A stretch of 64,000 bases of DNA, taken from positions 161,096 through 225,095 of the forward strand of contig DAIPKA010000004.1 of assembly GCA_036769985.1 (NCBI GenBank), in the 5' to 3' direction. Below are positions 54,997 through 63,486 of this stretch, piece after piece. Made by a program: the position numbers and the translations under genes. Below the pieces are notes generated by a model. It did no database searches, had not been told where the DNA came from, and saw only the letters and a program-made list of their open reading frames with translations. How positions within the stretch are numbered: position 1 is the stretch's first letter; the number at the start of each line of letters is the position of its first letter. The DNA is from Candidatus Hydrogenedentota bacterium. GTDB taxonomy: Bacteria; Hydrogenedentota; Hydrogenedentia; Hydrogenedentales; SLHB01.

Positions 54997-55458
54997 TCAG
55001 CGGCGGTAGGTACCGATCAGTTCGGCCTCGCCGAGAACATGCCCCTTCATAGCTGCCAGCACATCCTTCTTGGTTGCGCCGGGTGCCAACGCAAGCATTG
55101 CATCCAAGGCATACAGCTTGAAGACGTAGCGGTGCACCGGACCGCGAGGCGGCGCGGGCCCGCCATAGCCCACCTTGCGGAAATCGTTGACGCCTTGCCG
55201 GGTGCCATCCTCGAGCTGCCGGCTCGTCGGCACGGCCTCCGGCAACGCCCGCGCATCGGCGGGTATGTTGAACATGACCCAGTGGATCCACGTGCGCGCC
55301 GGCGCGTCCGGATCGTCGTTCACCAGCGCGAACGACCGGGTGCCTTCCGGCACGTCCGACCACTCGAGTCTCGGCGAGATGTCGGCGCCATCAGCCGTGT
55401 GCATCCTCGGAATCGGCGCACCATGATCGAACATGGGACTGGTCAATCGCAGCGCCAT
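54997..55458 (-). CDS. YbhB/YbcL-family PEBP (Raf kinase inhibitor-like) protein.
   Basis: DPDAP...HWV..NIP...GY.GP.PP..HRY is the PEBP signature. Confidence 0.88.
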   Translation of the reverse strand: MALRLTSPMFDHGAPIPRMHTADGADISPRLEWSDVPEGTRSFALVNDDPDAPARTWIHWVMFNIPADARALPEAVPTSRQLEDGTRQGVNDFRKVGYGGPAPPRGPVHRYVFKLYALDAMLALAPGATKKDVLAAMKGHVLGEAELIGTYRR

Positions 55459-55461
55459 GAC

Positions 55462-55779
55462 CTAATCTCCTTCTTCGATGGGCGGCTCCGGAGGCTGATC
55501 CCGCAAGGCCCGGATCGCCTCGAGTCCGGCCCAGTAGGCAGCGAGTTGTTCGCGTCCGTCCTGCGTGAGCCGATAGTCGGTATGGGGAATCTTGCCGTTG
55601 AAACTCTTCCGCACCTCGATGTAGCCGGCTTTCTCAAGGCGATCCATGTGCGACGAGAGATTGCCTTTCGTCAGACCCAGCGTCGTGCACAGGAACGCAA
55701 AATCAGCCACATCGAGGCCCGACAGGATCGTCAGGATTCGCAATCGCGCCGGCTCATGTATGATACGGTCGAGTTCCAT
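55462..55779 (-). CDS. Winged-helix transcriptional regulator (PadR-like).
   Basis: ARLRILTIL...LGLTKGNLSSHMDRLEKAGYIEVRK...YRLTQDGREQL. The TGATG stop/start overlap with the upstream membrane-protein gene indicates translational coupling. Confidence 0.65.
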   Translation of the reverse strand: MELDRIIHEPARLRILTILSGLDVADFAFLCTTLGLTKGNLSSHMDRLEKAGYIEVRKSFNGKIPHTDYRLTQDGREQLAAYWAGLEAIRALRDQPPEPPIEEGD

Positions 55780-56546
55780 CAGCTCTGGTCTTCGCTTTCG
55801 GCCTCGGCCGTCTCCACAAGCCCTTGACGCACAAGCGCTTTGAGCCGATGCAGGGCATAACGACTGAAGAGGTGGCCCACCAGGATCGCCACCAAGCCGT
55901 AGCCGAACACCGGCACGATCATGTTGAGTATCTCGAGATTCACATCCGTGAACCGGATAGGTACCCCCAGGAGGATCAGCACGGCGTGCAGGCCGTAAAG
56001 CACCGGCCAGATGAACGCCCAGAAGCCCAGCCGCTGCGTGATCGTCATCGCGATGAAGAACGGCACCATATACAACGCCGAAAAGGGTTGCGTGTACTGG
56101 AAGGGAAGATACCGCCCCGCGATCAGCAGCACGCCCAGCAGGTGATACGCCGCCAGGCCAATACCGGCCGCGTACACCCACGACGACGCCTTGATGCTTT
56201 CCCCGCTGCCGCCGAGATAGGCCGCGTATCCTTCCTCGCCGTAAATCCACTGGCTAATCCGGTAGATCCGGTCGCCACCCCATTTCGGCACTATGAACCA
56301 CGCCATCGCCACGATCATGCCGACGATCCCGGCCGCACAGAGCAGAATCCAAAGAACATTCTCGCTTCGGTACGCGCGAAGCGTCAAGAACACGACCGCC
56401 GCGATGAATACCCCCAACATCACAATGCAGATCCATTGGATCAGAAACGGAATCGTGCGATTCTTCGCGTAACGGCCGGCCCATTTCGCAATCTCGCGCG
56501 GATCGGCGAACGCATCGCTGGATCGATTAGGGACTTTGGCCGCCAT
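55779..56546 (-). CDS. Polytopic membrane protein (hypothetical) co-transcribed with the PadR-like regulator.
   Basis: About 7 hydrophobic helices. A GGAGG RBS. Confidence 0.65.
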   Translation of the reverse strand: MAAKVPNRSSDAFADPREIAKWAGRYAKNRTIPFLIQWICIVMLGVFIAAVVFLTLRAYRSENVLWILLCAAGIVGMIVAMAWFIVPKWGGDRIYRISQWIYGEEGYAAYLGGSGESIKASSWVYAAGIGLAAYHLLGVLLIAGRYLPFQYTQPFSALYMVPFFIAMTITQRLGFWAFIWPVLYGLHAVLILLGVPIRFTDVNLEILNMIVPVFGYGLVAILVGHLFSRYALHRLKALVRQGLVETAEAESEDQS

Positions 56547-56611: not shown

Positions 56612-56896
56612 TCACGGCTCGCCGGCCGCCGGCACCGGCGCGTAGAAGAGCGCCTCGTGATCCGAAAGCTGGCCTTGCTCGATCATCCGCCGGATGCCAC
56701 TGAGGTCCGCATCACGAGGCGTGCCCGCACTCCCCGGAGCCGCCGAGGTCTCCTCGACCACACGGACGAAATGCCCACGCGCGTGATCCACCGACAGCGA
56801 GGCAAAGACCACCGCGCAAAGGATTACCATGAACACGAAGGCCCGCTCATGGGCGCCCCACTCATGCGTCTTCACGGCGATCCTCCTTCGCGCCAC
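56612..56896 (-). CDS. Small single-TM protein (GTG start) immediately downstream of the giant fusion gene.
   Basis: One TM segment (FVFMVILCAVVFASLSV). It overlaps the upstream gene's 3' end by about 35 nt. An AGGAGG-like sequence precedes the GTG. Confidence 0.35.
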   Translation of the reverse strand: MARRRIAVKTHEWGAHERAFVFMVILCAVVFASLSVDHARGHFVRVVEETSAAPGSAGTPRDADLSGIRRMIEQGQLSDHEALFYAPVPAAGEP

Positions 56897-59800
56897 GTCG
56901 GCAGCGATCGCAGTAGATGCAGTCCAACTCGCGGACGGTGCGTACGCCCAAATCGCAGCGCGCCGGCCGCGGCGTCGGTACGTGCCTCCGCCATGGCCCC
57001 AACCCGTTCGCCAACGCCAGAAACGCCCCGGCCGGACACAGATTGCGGCACCAGAATCGTGGGAACACCGCCGAGAGCAAGACGAACAACACCGCCAGTA
57101 CCTCGACGCTCCGTGTCCGAACCGCGCTGAACACGCTGATCAGCGGATCCGCATCGAGCACGTCATACGCGCGCGTGACGGCGAACAGCAGAACCAGCAG
57201 CGCCAGCAACACATATTTTGCAGCGCGGCCGTAACGCCAGACCCCCTTGTCGATGGCGCCCCGGTACCGGGCGGGGCAGAGCTCCCCAACCAACTCCTGA
57301 AGCGCGCCGAAAGGACAGACCTGCCCGCAATAAACATTGCCGAAGAGCACCACCACGGCCGGCACAACCAGCGCCAGGAAGACCGGGCCCGTCGGGCTGG
57401 CCGCATTCACCCGGCCCCCAAGCAACGCCATGACCTGGTGCGTCGAGTACTGAAGGTTAAGGCCGAATCCAAGCACGGCCACCGATGCGAGCAGCATCAT
57501 CCGACGCACCCACGCGTTGGGGCGATACCGTATTCCGATCGCCATGGCCGTGAACGCCGCGAGAATCACGAATTCACGATGCACCTCGCGCCGCGTCTCG
57601 GTCTCCGTTGGGATCTGGCCCAACACCTGGCTCGCGAAATTCCGGCCGGCCGTCTCCAGTGTCCTCAAGATGGCATCCGTGGTTATCGTTGCCCCGGCCA
57701 CGGCATCGACGCCGGCGAAGGGCTGTTTCGCCAGAAGGTTGCGTCCCGCGAGCGACCCCAGCCAACTCGCCAGGCGATCTTCATAGATGGGCGTCTCGTG
57801 CGACTCGACGATGCGGAAGCTTCGGAGTTCGCCGTCGCCCCCAACATACATCGCGAGTATGATCGGCCCGCCGAATCCCATGACGCCCGGCGCCAGTTTC
57901 GGCGTTAGGAACACGTAACCCTTGCCGCACTCTGCCTCGTCCGAAGTCTCGTAATACTCGAGCACACAGCCGTCCGGAAGCACGGCATGCCGCTCGTCCA
58001 CCTCCGTGTCCCCCACGAGCGTCCGCGTGACCTCCCGGGCATGTTCCTCCCGGACCGCGCGGTGGCCGGCCGTGACGACATGCGAGCCGATCAAGCAGCA
58101 AGCCGCAACCCCGACGAGCAGATAGCCACCCGGCCGAGTCCGTCGGTCAAACCAATCGCCAACGGCCTCCCGAGCCGGTGGGAAAGCCATGGCCGGAAGA
58201 TTCGCCACCATCACGAGCGCCAGCACGGCCAGCGTCGGCCCGACGCCCCACAGCGGCAACAGCACCAGGCCCGTCAGTAGCGCGCCAACCGCGCCGCCGA
58301 CGTGATCGAGCGTCTCGAGACCGGCACCTGCCGAGGCGGCCGTCCTTCCGGATGCCGCAAGCCGGTGTACCGCCAAGGGGAAGCACGCGCCCACGGCCGC
58401 ACCGCCAACGCCGAACAACAGCACAAACCACACGCGCGGCACGCCGTCCGGAATCGCCCAGGCAAGCGCCAGCACACCGAGAACGACGGCCGTGAAACAC
58501 GGTAACGCCCAGGGAGGCTCGGACCCGCGTCGATCGAGCAGCCGGGTCGCTACTGCCCCACCGATGCCTGCGCCGGCCATGTACAGCGCCGCGATCACGC
58601 CCACGTGTAGGAACAGCGATCCGAACCGCGCTTGATACACGAACATCAGCGCCACGCTCAGCGCCATACCCACCGCGCCGGACGAGAACACGAGAAACTC
58701 GCCATCGAAGGCGCGACTCCCTAGCCCTCGGCCGCCTCGGAACAGGTAGACACAACGCAGCAACACGTAGAGAATGGCCGGGCAGATCGCCAGAAATAAA
58801 CCCGACGACAACAGCACGCCGAGCTCCTCGCCGACCGAACGCCAGCCCGCTTTTCGTAAGGCCACCAGCAAGCTGAACAAGAGCGCTTTCGGGCTGCCGT
58901 CGGTATTCAGCAGCAAGGCCGGAGTGCTCTCCTCCTGGACCTTCTTGTAGGCGTCCATCTGAAAGGCGATGCGGTCGGCCGGATACAGTCTCGCAACACC
59001 CTCAGGCGGATACACGGCCTCGGCGCCGTCGATCCGCTTGTACCGATTCAGGAGACCGCGCGCGAACATACTCAGGCCATCGCTATCGGACGCAATGAGC
59101 CAACTCTCGCCGCCCGGCTTGAGCACAATGCTCCGGAACACAGAATCGAGCGTCGTCAGCATCGACGCCCCAAGACGCGTCAGCTCACCGCCGAGGTAGT
59201 TCTCACCTCCGGATACGCGCACCGACACGACGCCCCCCTCCGCCAGGATGCCCCGGAGACCCAGGAAGAACTCCTGCGTGCAGTAGCGGTTGAGCACCAA
59301 CGTCGTGACATCGGGCAAATTCACCACCGCAAGGTCGTACCGCGCGTCCGTCGTGTCGATGAACCGGCGCACGTCCACGCCGGGAATGTCAAGGCGACCC
59401 ACCACTTCCGCGTAGTCCGAAGGCAACACCGGCAGCAGCGCCCCGGCAAACTCCGGATCGGAAGGCAGCCACGTCACCCGCTCGACGGACGGGAAGCGGA
59501 TGAACTGCGCGCAGATGCTCAGCGCACCTGGCCCAATCACCAAAACGCGCTTCGCCTCCGGCTGCTGCGCGAGATGGAGCGCGGCCACCTCGGCACCGTG
59601 CTCGCGATCCGGTAGCGCCTCGCACACGCCGCCGCCCGACACGACGACAAACTGGTCCTCACGCGCGCCGAAGAGATACCGCGCCTGGGCCGTGGCGAAG
59701 CAGCCCTGATAGGCCTCGGCGGTCAGTAGCCGGGTCCACTGCGCTCGGTCTCCTCGATCGGCCCAGCGCTCGCCCCCTCCCAGCACAAGGGCCGCAACAC

Positions 59801-60404
59801 AGGCCGCCACCGGTATCCAGCGGACAACACGCTCCGGGCGCGTCGCCGCCACGCCTACCGCCAACACACCCATGGCCACCACCACCACCGTTTCTCCGGA
59901 GACTCCCACCGCCAGCAGAATCGTCACGGCGACGCCGCCTACGCATGCACCGAGCGTCTCGACGACATAGACCCGCGCCACCGGCAACCGCGCATCGCCC
60001 TCGATCCAGCGGCACGCCGCCGTAAACAAGAAGCCCGTGGCCAAGCTGACGGGCACATTCACCACAAAGGCCACGGCCACCATCGGGAGTACCGGGAAAG
60101 CTTCGTAGACCTCGACGGATGCCAGGTCGCGCGCCCGCGCGGTGAGCTCGAGTTGGAGCGCAAACGCGGGAAGGTAGGCCATCGCGAGCCCGTCGACATG
60201 ACGCATGAGACGCGGCCAAACCTCCGCCGCCAGCCGCCCCGCCACGGCGCCCACCGCCACCGAAACCAGCCACGACGCAAAGAACGCGCCCACGCCCAGC
60301 TCATTGCCCTCGAACGCCGTCAGAAACGCACGAAAAAGCACCGTCTGCGCGACCAGCGCGAAGAATCCGAGGCCGAACACCACTGCGGCTTTCCGGAACG
60401 ACAC
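56862..60404 (-). CDS. 1180-aa polytopic membrane fusion: a spermidine-synthase-like (PABS/Rossmann) module with flanking TM bundles, an FMN-binding domain, and a NosR/NapH-like CxxxCP polyferredoxin membrane domain.
   Basis: GTG start with an AGGAGG RBS. Residues 1-220 and about 500-770 are multi-TM. Residues about 260-400 are spermidine-synthase-like (RVLVIGPGALS...YDLAVVNLPD...LRGILAEGGVVSV). Residues about 800-900 form an FMN-binding domain (GVDAVAGATITTDAIL). Residues about 920-1180 are TM helices carrying NVYCGQVCPFGALQE and FWCRNLCPAGAF (NapH/NosR-type), and the protein ends with a CIYCDRC partial ferredoxin motif. Confidence 0.85.
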   Translation of the reverse strand: MSFRKAAVVFGLGFFALVAQTVLFRAFLTAFEGNELGVGAFFASWLVSVAVGAVAGRLAAEVWPRLMRHVDGLAMAYLPAFALQLELTARARDLASVEVYEAFPVLPMVAVAFVVNVPVSLATGFLFTAACRWIEGDARLPVARVYVVETLGACVGGVAVTILLAVGVSGETVVVVAMGVLAVGVAATRPERVVRWIPVAACVAALVLGGGERWADRGDRAQWTRLLTAEAYQGCFATAQARYLFGAREDQFVVVSGGGVCEALPDREHGAEVAALHLAQQPEAKRVLVIGPGALSICAQFIRFPSVERVTWLPSDPEFAGALLPVLPSDYAEVVGRLDIPGVDVRRFIDTTDARYDLAVVNLPDVTTLVLNRYCTQEFFLGLRGILAEGGVVSVRVSGGENYLGGELTRLGASMLTTLDSVFRSIVLKPGGESWLIASDSDGLSMFARGLLNRYKRIDGAEAVYPPEGVARLYPADRIAFQMDAYKKVQEESTPALLLNTDGSPKALLFSLLVALRKAGWRSVGEELGVLLSSGLFLAICPAILYVLLRCVYLFRGGRGLGSRAFDGEFLVFSSGAVGMALSVALMFVYQARFGSLFLHVGVIAALYMAGAGIGGAVATRLLDRRGSEPPWALPCFTAVVLGVLALAWAIPDGVPRVWFVLLFGVGGAAVGACFPLAVHRLAASGRTAASAGAGLETLDHVGGAVGALLTGLVLLPLWGVGPTLAVLALVMVANLPAMAFPPAREAVGDWFDRRTRPGGYLLVGVAACCLIGSHVVTAGHRAVREEHAREVTRTLVGDTEVDERHAVLPDGCVLEYYETSDEAECGKGYVFLTPKLAPGVMGFGGPIILAMYVGGDGELRSFRIVESHETPIYEDRLASWLGSLAGRNLLAKQPFAGVDAVAGATITTDAILRTLETAGRNFASQVLGQIPTETETRREVHREFVILAAFTAMAIGIRYRPNAWVRRMMLLASVAVLGFGLNLQYSTHQVMALLGGRVNAASPTGPVFLALVVPAVVVLFGNVYCGQVCPFGALQELVGELCPARYRGAIDKGVWRYGRAAKYVLLALLVLLFAVTRAYDVLDADPLISVFSAVRTRSVEVLAVLFVLLSAVFPRFWCRNLCPAGAFLALANGLGPWRRHVPTPRPARCDLGVRTVRELDCIYCDRCRRGAKEDRREDA

Positions 60405-60512: not shown

Positions 60513-62201
60513 CTATTCCTTCTCCCCGAAAACGAGGGCCTCGAAGATGGTGTAGGTGGCGCCCTCACGCCATGCGTCGGCCGGCAGGCCCGCTTTCATG
60601 GAGAGATGGGTGAGCGTCGTGGCAAGGTCCCAACCTTGCTCCGGCGCGACCTGGGGCAAGAACACGGCGCTGCGCCCGTTCTTCGAGAGCACCATCCCGT
60701 GCTTGCCCAGGACGATTTCGTTGTACGAACCCACCGGCACCGGCGCCGTCAACGCGCTAATCTCGAACTCGAGATCCGGCAGTTCCTTGGCCTGGACGCG
60801 ATCAAACCGGTAATCGTTCACGCCCGCATCGATGGCGTGGTCAATCACGGCCTTGTACACCTCGCGGCGCGGCACGATCTCGCCGATGCAGCCACGCAAC
60901 TGCCCGTGCTCGTGCAGCGTCACGAAGGCGCCCATGATCTGCTTCATGCCCTCCGTCACCGGCACGTCAAGATCCTCCGGCGTCGGCGTGTCCTTGTGTT
61001 TGAGGTAGTACTCGAGCGTACGGCGCGCCAGCTTGAGGAGCGCCTGCTTGTCCTCATCCGAGAGTGAAGCCTTCGCCTCGTCGGGCGTCTCCTCATCGAC
61101 AACCGCTTCCCTTTCCGGCCACGCGCCGGTGAACGCAGCGCTGACATAGCTAACGGCATTCGAGTAGTCGCCCGTCATCCGGCCCGAGGAATCGTAGTGA
61201 CACAAGTGGCCCTCGGCATCCGCGGGCAGCATCGCCAGCAGAACACCCAGCGGACACCGGCCGCAGATGGTCGCCCCCGTCCCATCCACGTAACCGAAGA
61301 ACCCCTCCACATCTTTCTTCTCGGCAAAGGCCCAGGCGTCCATGTCGAGTCTCTTGATGCTCTCCGGAACATCGCTCTTGAACGGCGCGTAGCCGAACCT
61401 CGGGCCATAGTGCGTGAAGTCCGTGCTCACGACAACGAGTGTCTCGCGGTCGACCAGGCCGGCCAAAATCCTCCCCATCTCCCGGGCCGTGGCCACGTCG
61501 AGCTGGCCAACGACGATCGGCACCAACGTGAACTCGCCCAAGACGCGCTGCAACAGCGGCAACTCGATCTGAACGCTGTGTTCCTGGGCATGGGCCGCCG
61601 GCTCGCTCCGAAAGACGGTGTGTGTCTTGAGTGCGGCCATGAAACCGAGATCGAGCGCGACCTCTCCGAGCGGCGTCGAGTAGTGCGTGTAGCCCGTCGG
61701 AACACTCGCGGCATTCGACATGGGCACCGAGTGTGTCGGCCCCATGACCACCACGCGCCGGTAGTGCTTGCCCTTGATCGCGCGCAGGCCATAGCCCGCC
61801 GTCGGGCCTGAATACACGTATCCGGCGTGAGGGAGCACCAGTGCGATCACACCCTCCAGCGTGTCGCCCGTGGCCTCCTCGACAAAACCATCGATCTCGG
61901 CCGTCAACAGCGCCGGTTTCGCCTCATACCATCTCCCCGGCAACGGGGATCGAAACACTTGCTTGGTCATGGTTTCCACCTCGGCTTCCGTGGCCGCCGT
62001 TGCGGCTCCTTCCATCCACGCGCGCCCTAACCACGCGCCCAGCCCCACGCCCACACTCAGGAGCGTCACCCAGACTACCACGCGTAGCGCGGATGCTCCC
62101 GCGCACCAACCGGCCGGCGCTACGACCGTGTGTCCGTCAAGGTATCTCATCGCGATCGCCCTTTCCGATGCGAGCCTGCCGAACGCCATCATCCTGCCCA
62201 T
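60513..62201 (-). CDS. Fused AmmeMemoRadiSam system protein B (Memo-like) and protein A (AMMECR1 domain), with an N-terminal TM segment.
   Basis: The Memo signature LPHAGYVYSGPTAGYG and a C-terminal AMMECR1 signature GAFVTLHEHGQLRGCIGEI are both present. An N-terminal hydrophobic segment LRVVVWVTLLSVGVGLGAWLG is also present. The exact start is uncertain (62150, 62192 or 62201). Confidence 0.85.
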   Translation of the reverse strand: MGRMMAFGRLASERAIAMRYLDGHTVVAPAGWCAGASALRVVVWVTLLSVGVGLGAWLGRAWMEGAATAATEAEVETMTKQVFRSPLPGRWYEAKPALLTAEIDGFVEEATGDTLEGVIALVLPHAGYVYSGPTAGYGLRAIKGKHYRRVVVMGPTHSVPMSNAASVPTGYTHYSTPLGEVALDLGFMAALKTHTVFRSEPAAHAQEHSVQIELPLLQRVLGEFTLVPIVVGQLDVATAREMGRILAGLVDRETLVVVSTDFTHYGPRFGYAPFKSDVPESIKRLDMDAWAFAEKKDVEGFFGYVDGTGATICGRCPLGVLLAMLPADAEGHLCHYDSSGRMTGDYSNAVSYVSAAFTGAWPEREAVVDEETPDEAKASLSDEDKQALLKLARRTLEYYLKHKDTPTPEDLDVPVTEGMKQIMGAFVTLHEHGQLRGCIGEIVPRREVYKAVIDHAIDAGVNDYRFDRVQAKELPDLEFEISALTAPVPVGSYNEIVLGKHGMVLSKNGRSAVFLPQVAPEQGWDLATTLTHLSMKAGLPADAWREGATYTIFEALVFGEKE

Positions 62202-62434
62202 CGGCCCGGATGGCCCACTTCACCGGCTGCAAGTCCGGCCCTCGGGCCTGGATAGCGCCTGCCACGCACCGCCTCGACAACGCGCCGCGGCCTCAGGCGC
62301 CCACGCAAAACACCGAGCGCCGCAGCCATCGCCGTCGCTCTGAAGAACGCCCTCCGGTTCATTCAGCGCTCGCCTCCAACATCGCCCTCTCTGCGATCAC
62401 CAGTATACCACCGCATCTCCCCAGACAGGGCCCG

Positions 62435-63406
62435 TCATGTCCATATACCGGCGATCGGAGTGCCGCACTCCGGACAGGCACCGCCTTCCATGCGATTCTG
62501 CCGAACCGTGTAGCCGCGCCGTTCGACCAGCAAGACGCCACAGCCGGGACAATGCGTGTCCTCGCCGCCCGGACGCGCCACATTGCCGATGTACACGAAG
62601 TACAACCCCTCGGCCCGCGCGATCTCCTTCGCCCTCTCCAGTGTATTCTCGGGCGTTGGCGGCAGATTCTTCATCCGATACTGCGGATAGAACCGCGAGA
62701 AGTGAAGCGGCGTGTCGCGGCCGAGATTCTCGGCGATCCAGCGACTCACGCCGCGAAGATCCGCATCCGTGTCATTCAGCGTCGGAATGACCAGGTTCGT
62801 CACTTCAACCCAAACGCCGAGCGACTTCGACTGCACCAGCGTCCGCTGCACCGGCGCCAGCGTCGCATCGCATACATCTCGGTAGAACGCATCCGATATC
62901 GATTTCAGGTCGATGTTCCCCGCGTCCACGTAGGGACATAGCCGCGCCATCGGCTCCTCATTGATGTAACCGGCCGTAACCAGGGCGTTCTTGAGCCCCG
63001 CCTCGCGCACGGCCATGCACGTGTCAAGCGTGTACTCGTAGTACACGAGAGGCTCCGTGTACGTATACGCGACGGACCGGCAGTCGTATTCGCGGGCCGC
63101 CTGCGCCACGAGCGCCGGCGGAAACGGCTTTCCCGGGTAGTCCTCCGGGTTGGCCTGCGAGATCTCCCAGTTCTGACAGTTCTTGCAGTGGAGATTGCAG
63201 CCCACTGTCGCCAACGAGAGAATACCCGTGCCGGGCAGGAAGTGAAACAGCGGCTTCTTCTCGACGGGATCCACGTGCACCGAGCACGGATGTCCATACG
63301 TAACCGCCACCAGCTTGCCGTCCACATTCACGCGGATCCGGCACTCGCCGCTCTGACCCGGCGCGATGATGCATCCCTTCGGACACAATGCGCATTGGAC
63401 ATCCAT
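62435..63406 (-). CDS. AmmeMemoRadiSam system radical SAM enzyme (PflA-like).
   Basis: The CNLHCKNC radical-SAM CxxxCxxC motif is present. An N-terminal Cys cluster CALCPKGC...GEC and a C-terminal CPGC...CPEC zinc ribbon are also present. I favour the ATG at 63406; the track uses a TTG at 63433. Confidence 0.85.
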   Translation of the reverse strand: MDVQCALCPKGCIIAPGQSGECRIRVNVDGKLVAVTYGHPCSVHVDPVEKKPLFHFLPGTGILSLATVGCNLHCKNCQNWEISQANPEDYPGKPFPPALVAQAAREYDCRSVAYTYTEPLVYYEYTLDTCMAVREAGLKNALVTAGYINEEPMARLCPYVDAGNIDLKSISDAFYRDVCDATLAPVQRTLVQSKSLGVWVEVTNLVIPTLNDTDADLRGVSRWIAENLGRDTPLHFSRFYPQYRMKNLPPTPENTLERAKEIARAEGLYFVYIGNVARPGGEDTHCPGCGVLLVERRGYTVRQNRMEGGACPECGTPIAGIWT

Positions 63407-63486
63407 GGCACGGCCCCTGTCGCGATACCCCAATTGTGCGCCCCCGCAATCCCGCCGTCAAGCCTTCCAGACCGTTGCGGAACCCG

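Follow-up and report, generated by a model that had tools for sequence, protein, structure and literature searches.

A stretch of 64,000 nucleotides (nt) from Candidatus Hydrogenedentota bacterium (assembly GCA_036769985.1, contig DAIPKA010000004.1, positions 161,096 to 225,095 of the forward strand), hereafter the window, contains a very large open reading frame (ORF) that was analysed together with its neighbouring genes and its homologues. The ORF lies at 56862..60404 on the minus strand and encodes a membrane redox protein of 1180 amino acids (aa), here called the giant protein, in a single open frame with a GTG start and the ribosome-binding site AGGAGGA 6 nt 5' of the GTG. A first-pass annotation made from the letters alone had described an uninterrupted 3.5-kb ORF with a GTG start and a strong ribosome-binding site, all of which was recovered. 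It had not stated the strand; the plus-strand translation of the interval is riddled with stops and the coding frame is on the minus strand.

The giant gene belongs to an operon of five genes, all on the minus strand, in the order radical S-adenosylmethionine (SAM) enzyme, small twin-arginine ORF, Memo+AMMECR1 fusion, giant and tail ORF. The first gene (62435..63433) encodes the radical SAM enzyme of the AmmeMemoRadiSam system (TIGR04337, 381 bits against a cut-off of 220; Pfam Radical_SAM). It is followed by a 57-aa ORF with the twin-arginine signal MNRRAFF (62189..62362) and then by the fusion of Memo and AMMECR1, AmmeMemoRadiSam proteins B and A (60513..62201; Pfam Memo 3.8e-55, AMMECR1 5e-48). 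The fusion exceeded the cut-offs of TIGR04336 (207 bits) and TIGR04335 (152 bits), with matches from residue 87 on, and several starts are possible for it, one of them an ATG that overlaps the stop of the small ORF. All three AmmeMemoRadiSam families (TIGR04337, TIGR04336 and TIGR04335) are thus adjacent, directly upstream of the giant gene and on the same strand. The tail ORF (56612..56896, 94 aa) overlaps the 3' end of the giant gene by 35 nt in another frame. The first-pass annotation had seen neither this AmmeMemoRadiSam partner nor the two small ORFs, nor the predicted periplasmic placement of the spermidine-synthase-like (SpeE-like) domain described below.

Domains of the giant protein were searched with Pfam and NCBIfam. 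The flavin mononucleotide (FMN)-binding family FMN_bind (residues 843-919, E=3.9e-9) and two stretches of Fer4_5 (E=5.8e-17) scored above the curated cut-offs, as the first-pass annotation had anticipated. Its third expected family, Spermine_synth (PF01564, residues 276-394), remained just under the cut-off (20.4 vs 22.9 bits), which some homologues exceed. The major facilitator superfamily (MFS) model MFS_1 was sub-threshold at residues 570-708 (23.1 bits vs a gathering score of 33.4). NCBIfam returned partial, far sub-threshold matches only, to NosR, NapH, RnfG and SpeE models, and no Pfam or NCBIfam model covers the protein as a whole.

An AlphaFold2 (AF2) model was built with a 42-sequence alignment of the family, in which residue conservation was also counted. 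Such a model had been proposed as a check by the first-pass annotation, and it was confident (mean predicted local distance difference test score 86.9, predicted template-modelling score 0.84). It shows a 14-helix MFS transporter fold, containing the twelve helices and two repeats of that fold, with a complete SpeE-fold domain inserted between transmembrane helices (TM) 7 and 8; the SpeE fold includes its N-terminal beta domain and Foldseek agrees with the assignment. Residues 5-165 and 568-716, in the two transmembrane halves, are homologous repeats (hhalign E=3.7e-5), each of which stops just ahead of a soluble domain. The two helix bundles around a Rossmann core that had been noticed in the first pass are therefore present, and what had been missed is that together they form an MFS fold.

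From the N-terminus, the protein begins with TM1-TM7 (residues 3-207; 59784..60398, minus), that is the N-terminal MFS half (TM1-6) and one extra outward helix. The SpeE-fold domain, predicted to be periplasmic, comes next (residues 228-500; 58905..59723, minus). It is followed by TM8-TM15 (residues 523-782; 58059..58838, minus), made up of the return helix TM8, the C-terminal MFS half TM9-14 and TM15, which leads out to an RnfG/NqrC-type FMN-binding domain, also predicted periplasmic (residues 786-926; 57627..58049, minus). A membrane module of the NapH/NosR/RdhC type with TM16-TM20 (residues 943-1133; 57006..57578, minus) was recognised from Fer4_5, partial matches to NosR and NapH models, cysteine conservation and topology. 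The protein ends with a four-cysteine motif assigned to the cytoplasm, C1150-x11-C1162-x2-C1165-x2-C1168 (56901..56957, minus), a candidate single [4Fe-4S] site.

Topology was assigned from family-averaged hydrophobicity, the positive-inside rule, the AF2 helices and the internal repeat. Short loops contain far more Lys+Arg per sequence on the assigned cytoplasmic side than outside. The FMN domain of the homologous protein PceC was shown experimentally to be exocytoplasmic, and NosR has the same orientation (PMC5928378). In the AF2 model the SpeE-like and FMN domains are set apart by eight helices, which places both on the same side of the membrane. Taken together, the hydrophobicity and charge map, the PceC orientation, the helix count and the repeat make it likely that the SpeE-like domain faces the periplasm. 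For the cysteine motifs of the redox module the predicted position is the cytoplasmic face, in line with published accounts of NapH and NosR.

The SpeE-like domain was compared with solved SpeE enzymes. In SpeE structures, the Asp of the GGGDGG loop selects decarboxylated SAM (dcSAM) over SAM, and the Asp of D-S/T-x-D-P is catalytic. The sequence VLVIGPGALS, noted in the first pass, is located at residues 287-296, and in the family the GGGDGG loop is replaced by GxGSLG (G291-x-G-S-L-G). The position of the catalytic Asp is N362, an Asn in 34 of the 42 family members and an Asp in only 3. The spermidine synthase model TIGR00417 reached 23.4 bits (cut-off 249.6). Features of class I SAM-binding proteins are retained, with G291 of motif I and D316 of motif II invariant and Asp or Glu at position 344 of motif III in 42/42, and the domain has invariant residues of its own (T238, Y243, G246, Q251, W312, N402 and W435). 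Since these class I nucleotide-binding motifs are kept, the domain probably binds an adenosyl-containing ligand such as SAM, S-adenosylhomocysteine, methylthioadenosine or 5'-deoxyadenosine. The residues that define an aminopropyltransferase are changed, which supports ligand binding rather than aminopropyl transfer, much as the first-pass annotation had proposed from the degenerate loop. In the MFS core, the conserved acidic residues E149 and D700 occupy equivalent positions of the two repeats, which would fit a cationic substrate.

In the redox module, the motif GATITT is found at residues 904-909, and Thr906, encoded at 57687-57689, is the predicted flavinylation site. G904 and A905 do not vary, and 41/42 sequences have T906. 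The family consensus D-x-V-S/T-G-A-T corresponds to the flavinylation motif of ApbE, with Ala at the S/T position in the window protein, and covalent FMN attached to Thr906 by ApbE is predicted from this motif. Two CX3CP motifs follow, YCGQVCPFGA (residues 1025-1034) and WCRNLCPAGA (1118-1127), at the ends of TM18 and TM20; their residues C1026/C1030/P1031 and C1119/C1123/P1124 are invariant or nearly so. All four of C1150, C1162, C1165 and C1168 are invariant in the 42 sequences; the terminal CxxCxxC (1162-1168) belongs to this four-cysteine set, a candidate site for one [4Fe-4S] cluster. The motifs read in the first pass were thus located, except that the second was not the YCGxxCPxGA described but began with WCR.

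The first-pass annotation had called this a NosR/NirI/NapH-type module. The type was right, but the giant protein is a member of none of the NosR, RdhC or NapH families. Against the NosR model (NCBIfam NF046105) it scored 47.1 bits with a cut-off of 1000, over model positions 433-615 only, and the NapH models gave 31.2 bits against 213 (TIGR02163) and 29.4 against 234 (PRK09477). The giant also departs from the NapH layout, in which four helices go with a pair of C-terminal Fe-S motifs. It shares with NosR an FMN-binding domain with an S/T-G-A-T-type site, at which flavinylation is predicted, and two CX3CP motifs in the membrane module. The two C-terminal ferredoxin-type [4Fe-4S] motifs of NosR are replaced by one four-cysteine motif. 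No member of the nos cluster (nosZ, nosDFYL) or of the nap and nir partner families was found by Pfam among the neighbours in the window, in agreement with the first pass, or in the 8 annotated homologue contexts.

A protein database search found a protein identical to the giant on 4 contigs, one of them of 231,723 bp. At least 120 clusters (90% identity) span 98-100% of its length at 35-57% identity, and more than 100 full-length homologues (28-57% identity) were recovered from several phyla in assemblies made independently. Clustered at 50% identity, the fusion is represented by more than 150 clusters, all of metagenomic origin. An exhaustive HMMER search of 50%-identity representatives returned 1591 proteins at E<=1e-30; the best 150 of these were mostly full-length matches of 1150-1360 aa. 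Some relatives have about 740-760 aa and match residues 1-730, and others about 950-1000 aa and match residues 1-935; these may reflect gene calls cut short or real split forms without the NapH-like module. For a species-level sample, contigs of one genome per species were scanned with the family alignment, which yielded 80 full-length loci. The same scan with the single giant protein as query gave no match, and the family alignment was needed.

These data bear on whether the ORF could be an assembly or frameshift artefact that fuses separate SpeE-like and NosR-like genes. Its unusual length, and a frame change at the extreme 3' end where the tail ORF starts, are all that speaks for an artefact. 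The identical protein on 4 contigs and the full-length homologues of independent origin speak against it, as do an AF2 model that is confident across the domain junctions and a 3' split shared by 15 species, in which the two frames often overlap by 4 nt. For the main fusion the artefact explanation is refuted, its probability being negligible, and the first-pass claim that a membrane SpeE-like module is fused to an FMN_bind and CX3CP module of NapH/NosR type holds for one genuine protein. The fusion, whose modules the first pass knew only as separate proteins, is not rare.

All 80 species-representative genomes with the giant family are metagenome-assembled genomes (MAGs), with no cultured isolate among them. 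They are labelled Planctomycetota (Pirellulales, Sedimentisphaerales, Phycisphaerae), Hydrogenedentota, Lentisphaerae/Victivallales, Kiritimatiellae and Verrucomicrobia, and some bins Nitrospiraceae, Desulfobulbales, Thermodesulfobacteriota or Pseudomonadota. Near-identical giant proteins also occur in bins of conflicting phylum label, e.g. 'Nitrospiraceae'. The giant represents a widespread protein family of uncultured bacteria, of which no description was found in the literature searched. The first-pass annotation had considered that the architecture might be a common and already annotated family; it is common, but the database names of homologues are only '4Fe-4S binding protein', 'spermidine synthase' or 'quinol dehydrogenase membrane component'.

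Gene neighbourhoods were compared across the 80 species-level loci. Both the radical SAM and the Memo-AMMECR1 genes were found directly upstream on the same strand in 61 loci. In a further 9, Memo-AMMECR1 was upstream and the contig ended short of the radical SAM position, 4 had the radical SAM gene only, and 2 had no upstream DNA, which leaves 78 informative loci. The giant gene directly follows Memo+AMMECR1 in 70 of these (~90%), with the radical SAM gene upstream wherever the contig extends. The gap between Memo-AMMECR1 and giant has a median of 21 nt and the genes often overlap or abut. Four distant homologues (38-49% identity) show the same gene order amid unrelated flanks, and genes beyond the cassette are otherwise unrelated between loci. 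The giant protein is therefore almost always the membrane partner of the radical SAM/Memo/AMMECR1 trio. The linkage is confined to some phyla, and the giant is not among the recognised components of the system. Four loci from Lentisphaerae/Victivallales and one Planctomycetota bin (L021-L023, L027) contain the radical SAM gene, the small twin-arginine ORF and the giant, with no Memo-AMMECR1 within 8 kb.

The Memo+AMMECR1 fusion has an extra N-terminus of ~85 aa, consisting of a charged region, one hydrophobic helix and an acidic linker. Canonical family models begin at the Memo domain (TIGR04336: 270 positions) and lack such an N-terminus. A hydrophobic N-terminal segment was found in 63/71 homologues, and in ~26 of the 71, judged by eye, a lipobox-like Cys is followed by a P/E/K/T-rich linker. 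The acidic flank after the helix in the window protein fits an N-in, C-out orientation. These features predict that the Memo-AMMECR1 protein of the operon is a periplasmic, membrane-tethered enzyme, held by a signal anchor or a lipoprotein-like N-terminus. The radical SAM enzyme of the window is of the pyruvate formate-lyase (PFL)-activase type, with neither a recognition domain for ribosomally synthesised and post-translationally modified peptides (RiPPs) nor a SPASM domain. It has no signal peptide, and none of its homologues with a resolvable start has an N-terminal twin-arginine motif with a hydrophobic signal-like segment.

The 57-aa ORF consists of a twin-arginine motif, a weakly hydrophobic segment, a basic tail with a YPG motif whose glycine is invariant, and a W-x-G C-terminus. 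Six positions (R3, R4, F6, G39, W55 and G57) do not vary across 28 diverse sequences, and W-x-G invariably forms the exact end of the protein. Its N-terminus agrees with the twin-arginine consensus S/T-R-R-x-F-L-K followed by a hydrophobic region, R-R-x-F being present in 28/28, with a sub-threshold score against Pfam TAT_signal (7.8 bits, cut-off 22.7). The product is predicted to be a substrate of twin-arginine translocation (Tat). In essentially every locus, the four without Memo-AMMECR1 among them, the ORF comes next after the radical SAM gene. At its 5' end it abuts or overlaps the stop of the radical SAM gene, with GGAGG 10 nt upstream of its own start, and at its 3' end its stop overlaps a Memo-AMMECR1 ATG. 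It has no family in Pfam or NCBIfam. Its relatives form 477 clusters, most of them 60 aa long, for which the database names are 'hypothetical' or 'twin-arginine translocation signal domain-containing protein'. At two loci (L051, L084) the protein is longer: an insertion separates the signal from the last ~30 residues, and these two parts alone are retained.

The tail ORF encodes one transmembrane helix followed by ~55 aa that point outward and carry IRRMIEQGQLSDHEALFY, a motif also written LSDHEAxFY. By tblastn, the tail was detected in 72/80 species-level loci and undetected in 6. In 57 of 78 homologous loci it continues the reading frame of the giant, and in 15 it stands as a separate ORF. 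Most homologues thus have the fused form, and the window shows the rarer, split state of an even longer protein. The gene annotated for the tail on the source contig has 87 aa. Neither Pfam nor NCBIfam has a family for it, and a database search with it returned itself alone. Both small genes are conserved, and both are systematically missed or left unnamed in MAG annotation.

Several known systems were compared with the operon. NosR/NirI and RdhC/PceC also have a periplasmic FMN_bind domain with D-x-x-S/T-G-A-T, after which comes a membrane module bearing two CX3CP motifs, and are likewise presumed to supply an extracytoplasmic enzyme with electrons. Ferredoxin-type motifs number two in NosR and are absent from RdhC (PMC5928378), whereas the giant has one four-cysteine motif. 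Unlike in those systems, there are no nos or rdh genes near the giant, the partner is Memo-AMMECR1 rather than NosZ or a dehalogenase, and the redox module makes up only the C-terminal third, the rest of the protein being an MFS core and a SpeE-fold domain. Meheust et al. 2021 (PMC8238504) described NapH-like flavinylated proteins as a modular apparatus through which electron pools of the cytosol or membrane are connected to extracytosolic oxidoreductases. The giant fits their class of PF12801 proteins with an N-terminal extracytosolic FMN-binding domain and various oxidoreductase partners (PMC8238504), and the main text of that study contains no mention of radical SAM, of Memo or AMMECR1, or of spermidine synthase and MFS, so that neither the partner set nor the fusion appears to be described there.

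The N-terminal part resembles the membrane-anchored polyamine aminopropyltransferases of PRK03612 and proteins named 'fused MFS/spermidine synthase', in which a multi-helix N-terminus precedes a SpeE-fold domain, with a partial match to PRK03612 at residues 37-396. The giant differs from them in its score (35 bits, cut-off 472), in its changed catalytic and dcSAM-selecting residues and in the added second transmembrane half and redox module. A literature search found nothing on membrane or MFS-fused spermidine synthase proteins. Compared with 14-helix or domain-inserted MFS proteins (POT family, SV2A), the hairpin of the giant bears a 270-residue enzyme-fold domain, and transport is only putative.

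Conservation of AMMECR1 and MEMO1 reaches from archaea to humans, in whom both have links to disease. Burroughs and colleagues are reported to have connected Memo contexts, in 2019, with the modification of nucleotide bases and of aliphatic isoprenoids. A study of 2007 had already described the neighbourhood of radical SAM, Memo and AMMECR1 genes and the fusion of the latter two, and predicted a role in RNA base modification (Balaji & Aravind, PMC2034487); the chemistry of the three-gene system has been unsettled since at least then (PMC2034487). As in canonical AmmeMemoRadiSam systems, the three families are adjacent here, Memo and AMMECR1 are fused and the scores exceed the cut-offs. Unlike in those systems, Memo-AMMECR1 has an export signal or anchor, and a twin-arginine mini-protein, the giant and the tail ORF are added. 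If Memo-AMMECR1 is exported as predicted, the RNA base modification proposed in 2007 (PMC2034487) would therefore be excluded, at least in this variant. The literature search returned no functional study of AmmeMemoRadiSam and none on the giant family, of which a prior mention in Burroughs et al. 2019 is possible. The modules are all of known kinds; new are their combination, the AmmeMemoRadiSam link, the predicted export and the two small genes.

The explanation towards which we lean, with little more than even confidence, is that the giant protein is the electron and co-substrate hub of an extracytoplasmic variant of AmmeMemoRadiSam. This is proposed because the flavin, the adenosyl-binding fold and Memo-AMMECR1 are all predicted periplasmic and because NapH-like flavoproteins are modular (PMC8238504). 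The TM7/TM8 hairpin of the 14-helix MFS-fold core would display the SpeE-fold domain in the periplasm, and a NosR/RdhC-type conduit would link the cysteine centres of the cytoplasmic face, via five helices, to periplasmic FMN on Thr906. Electrons would pass from a cytoplasmic donor or the quinol pool across the membrane to the periplasmic flavin, and from there to the tethered periplasmic Memo (metal centre) and AMMECR1 enzyme and/or a Tat-exported partner. The MFS/SpeE-like half would export, hold or present a cationic co-substrate of adenosyl or amine type. In this proposal the direction of electron flow, the Fe-S content, the ligand and the final product are conjectural. The first-pass interpretation, transmembrane electron transfer coupled to a substrate-binding module, is partly supported.

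A number of observations weigh against the hub proposal. The radical SAM enzyme carries no export signal, so that the pathway would have to span both compartments, and there is no obvious supply of ligand for a SAM-type binding fold outside the cytoplasm. The topology of the giant is a prediction in which TM7 and TM14 are short in the model. Many Memo-AMMECR1 anchors are positively charged on both flanks, and the lipobox-like Cys occurs in only about a third. Even in NosR and RdhC the cofactor of the CX3CP motifs is unsettled (PMC5928378). Every homologue stems from an uncultured MAG, and 4 of the 78 informative loci have the giant without either cassette gene. At one of the loci without AmmeMemoRadiSam genes (L019, 4046..7694, Lentisphaerae), the giant lies beside an Rrf2-family regulator and HD-domain proteins. 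The same homologue also adjoins a separate FMN_bind protein and a PepSY_TM protein.

Other explanations assign different roles to the parts. That the giant is a true membrane-bound polyamine aminopropyltransferase, redox-regulated by its NosR-like module, is very improbable. Some homologues are named 'spermidine synthase' in source databases and genes for polyamine metabolism adjoin the cassette at three loci, but the dcSAM-selecting loop is missing, the catalytic Asp is mostly Asn, every SpeE model scores under its cut-off and the domain is predicted in the periplasm, where dcSAM is not available. The polyamine neighbours, an ornithine/arginine decarboxylase and a deoxyhypusine-synthase-like gene divergent to the cassette (L087 1500..6785; also L032, L034), are confined to three closely related loci and were dropped as a context clue for that reason. 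In one refinement of the hub proposal, the trio would modify an isoprenoid or quinone-type lipid reachable from both leaflets, with the giant as MFS-type flippase or holder and redox partner. In its favour, the 2019 work of Burroughs and colleagues is reported to link Memo contexts to isoprenoid modification. The NapH module is thought to interact with quinols (PMC5928378), but no isoprenoid or quinone biosynthesis gene is conserved beside the cassette in the annotated contexts, and the Tat protein and the adenosyl-binding motifs would have no role; we consider this improbable.

Within the hub proposal, the small twin-arginine protein can be accommodated in two ways. It may be the substrate: a cytoplasmic radical SAM enzyme would modify the 57-aa protein at YPG or W-x-G before Tat export, the product would possibly be signal-anchored, and Memo-AMMECR1 together with flavin electrons from the giant would mature a peptide-derived cofactor or signal, with logical parallels in PQQ, mycofactocin and QhpC. 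The invariant residues and exact W-x-G end, the adjoining radical SAM gene and the longer variants, which suggest a tethered functional C-terminal unit, point in this direction. Tat export suits a substrate modified or folded beforehand, and a cytoplasmic radical SAM enzyme would be reconciled with periplasmic enzymes in one pathway. We know of no such peptide in canonical AmmeMemoRadiSam systems, and the substrate class would therefore differ in this variant. The PFL-activase type of the radical SAM enzyme, without RiPP recognition or SPASM domain, and the extremely basic mature protein, unusual for an exported peptide, also count against a substrate, and the MFS core and SpeE-like domain would be left without a role. 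We consider this explanation doubtful. The small protein might alternatively carry the folded, Fe-S-loaded radical SAM enzyme through Tat by hitchhiking. Memo-AMMECR1 would then leave by a Sec or lipoprotein route, SAM would be supplied via the MFS core and held by the SpeE-fold domain, and low-potential electrons would come from covalent FMN in place of flavodoxin. This escort model gives a role to every module and agrees with the invariant RRxF motif, with the translational coupling of the small ORF to the radical SAM gene, with the loci where these two and the giant persist without Memo-AMMECR1, with the conserved adenosyl-binding motifs I-III in a predicted periplasmic domain and with E149/D700, which fit a cationic substrate. 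However, we know of no periplasmic radical SAM enzyme, no case of SAM export and no other dedicated Tat escort of this small size. In none of the homologues does the radical SAM protein itself bear a Tat signal, a fusion that would have been direct support for hitchhiking, and the exact W-x-G end is more like a substrate or recognition tag. We regard the escort as unlikely. A complete radical SAM pathway outside the cytoplasm, with a Tat-escorted enzyme, lipoprotein Memo-AMMECR1 and a giant protein that provides SAM and flavin electrons, appears slightly less likely still. If true, it would be the first extracytoplasmic radical SAM system and would tie the molecular function of MEMO1 and AMMECR1 to cell-envelope chemistry.

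The operon offers a new handle on the function of the radical SAM/Memo/AMMECR1 trio. It constrains the trio by a predicted dedicated flavin-based transmembrane electron supply, by an adenosyl-ligand-binding fold predicted to be mounted on a transporter and by a conserved twin-arginine mini-protein that is either escort or substrate. With the giant family, the range of partners known for flavinylated conduits of the NapH/NosR type becomes wider as well.

Just downstream of the operon, three further genes lie on the minus strand: a 255-aa multi-helix membrane protein without a Pfam or NCBIfam family (55779..56546), a small winged-helix regulator (HTH_34, ArsR-like; 55462..55785) and a PEBP/YbhB-family protein (54997..55458). 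They are not conserved with the cassette save in the closest relative (L007), where alone the 255-aa protein is found downstream of the giant, with 71% identity.

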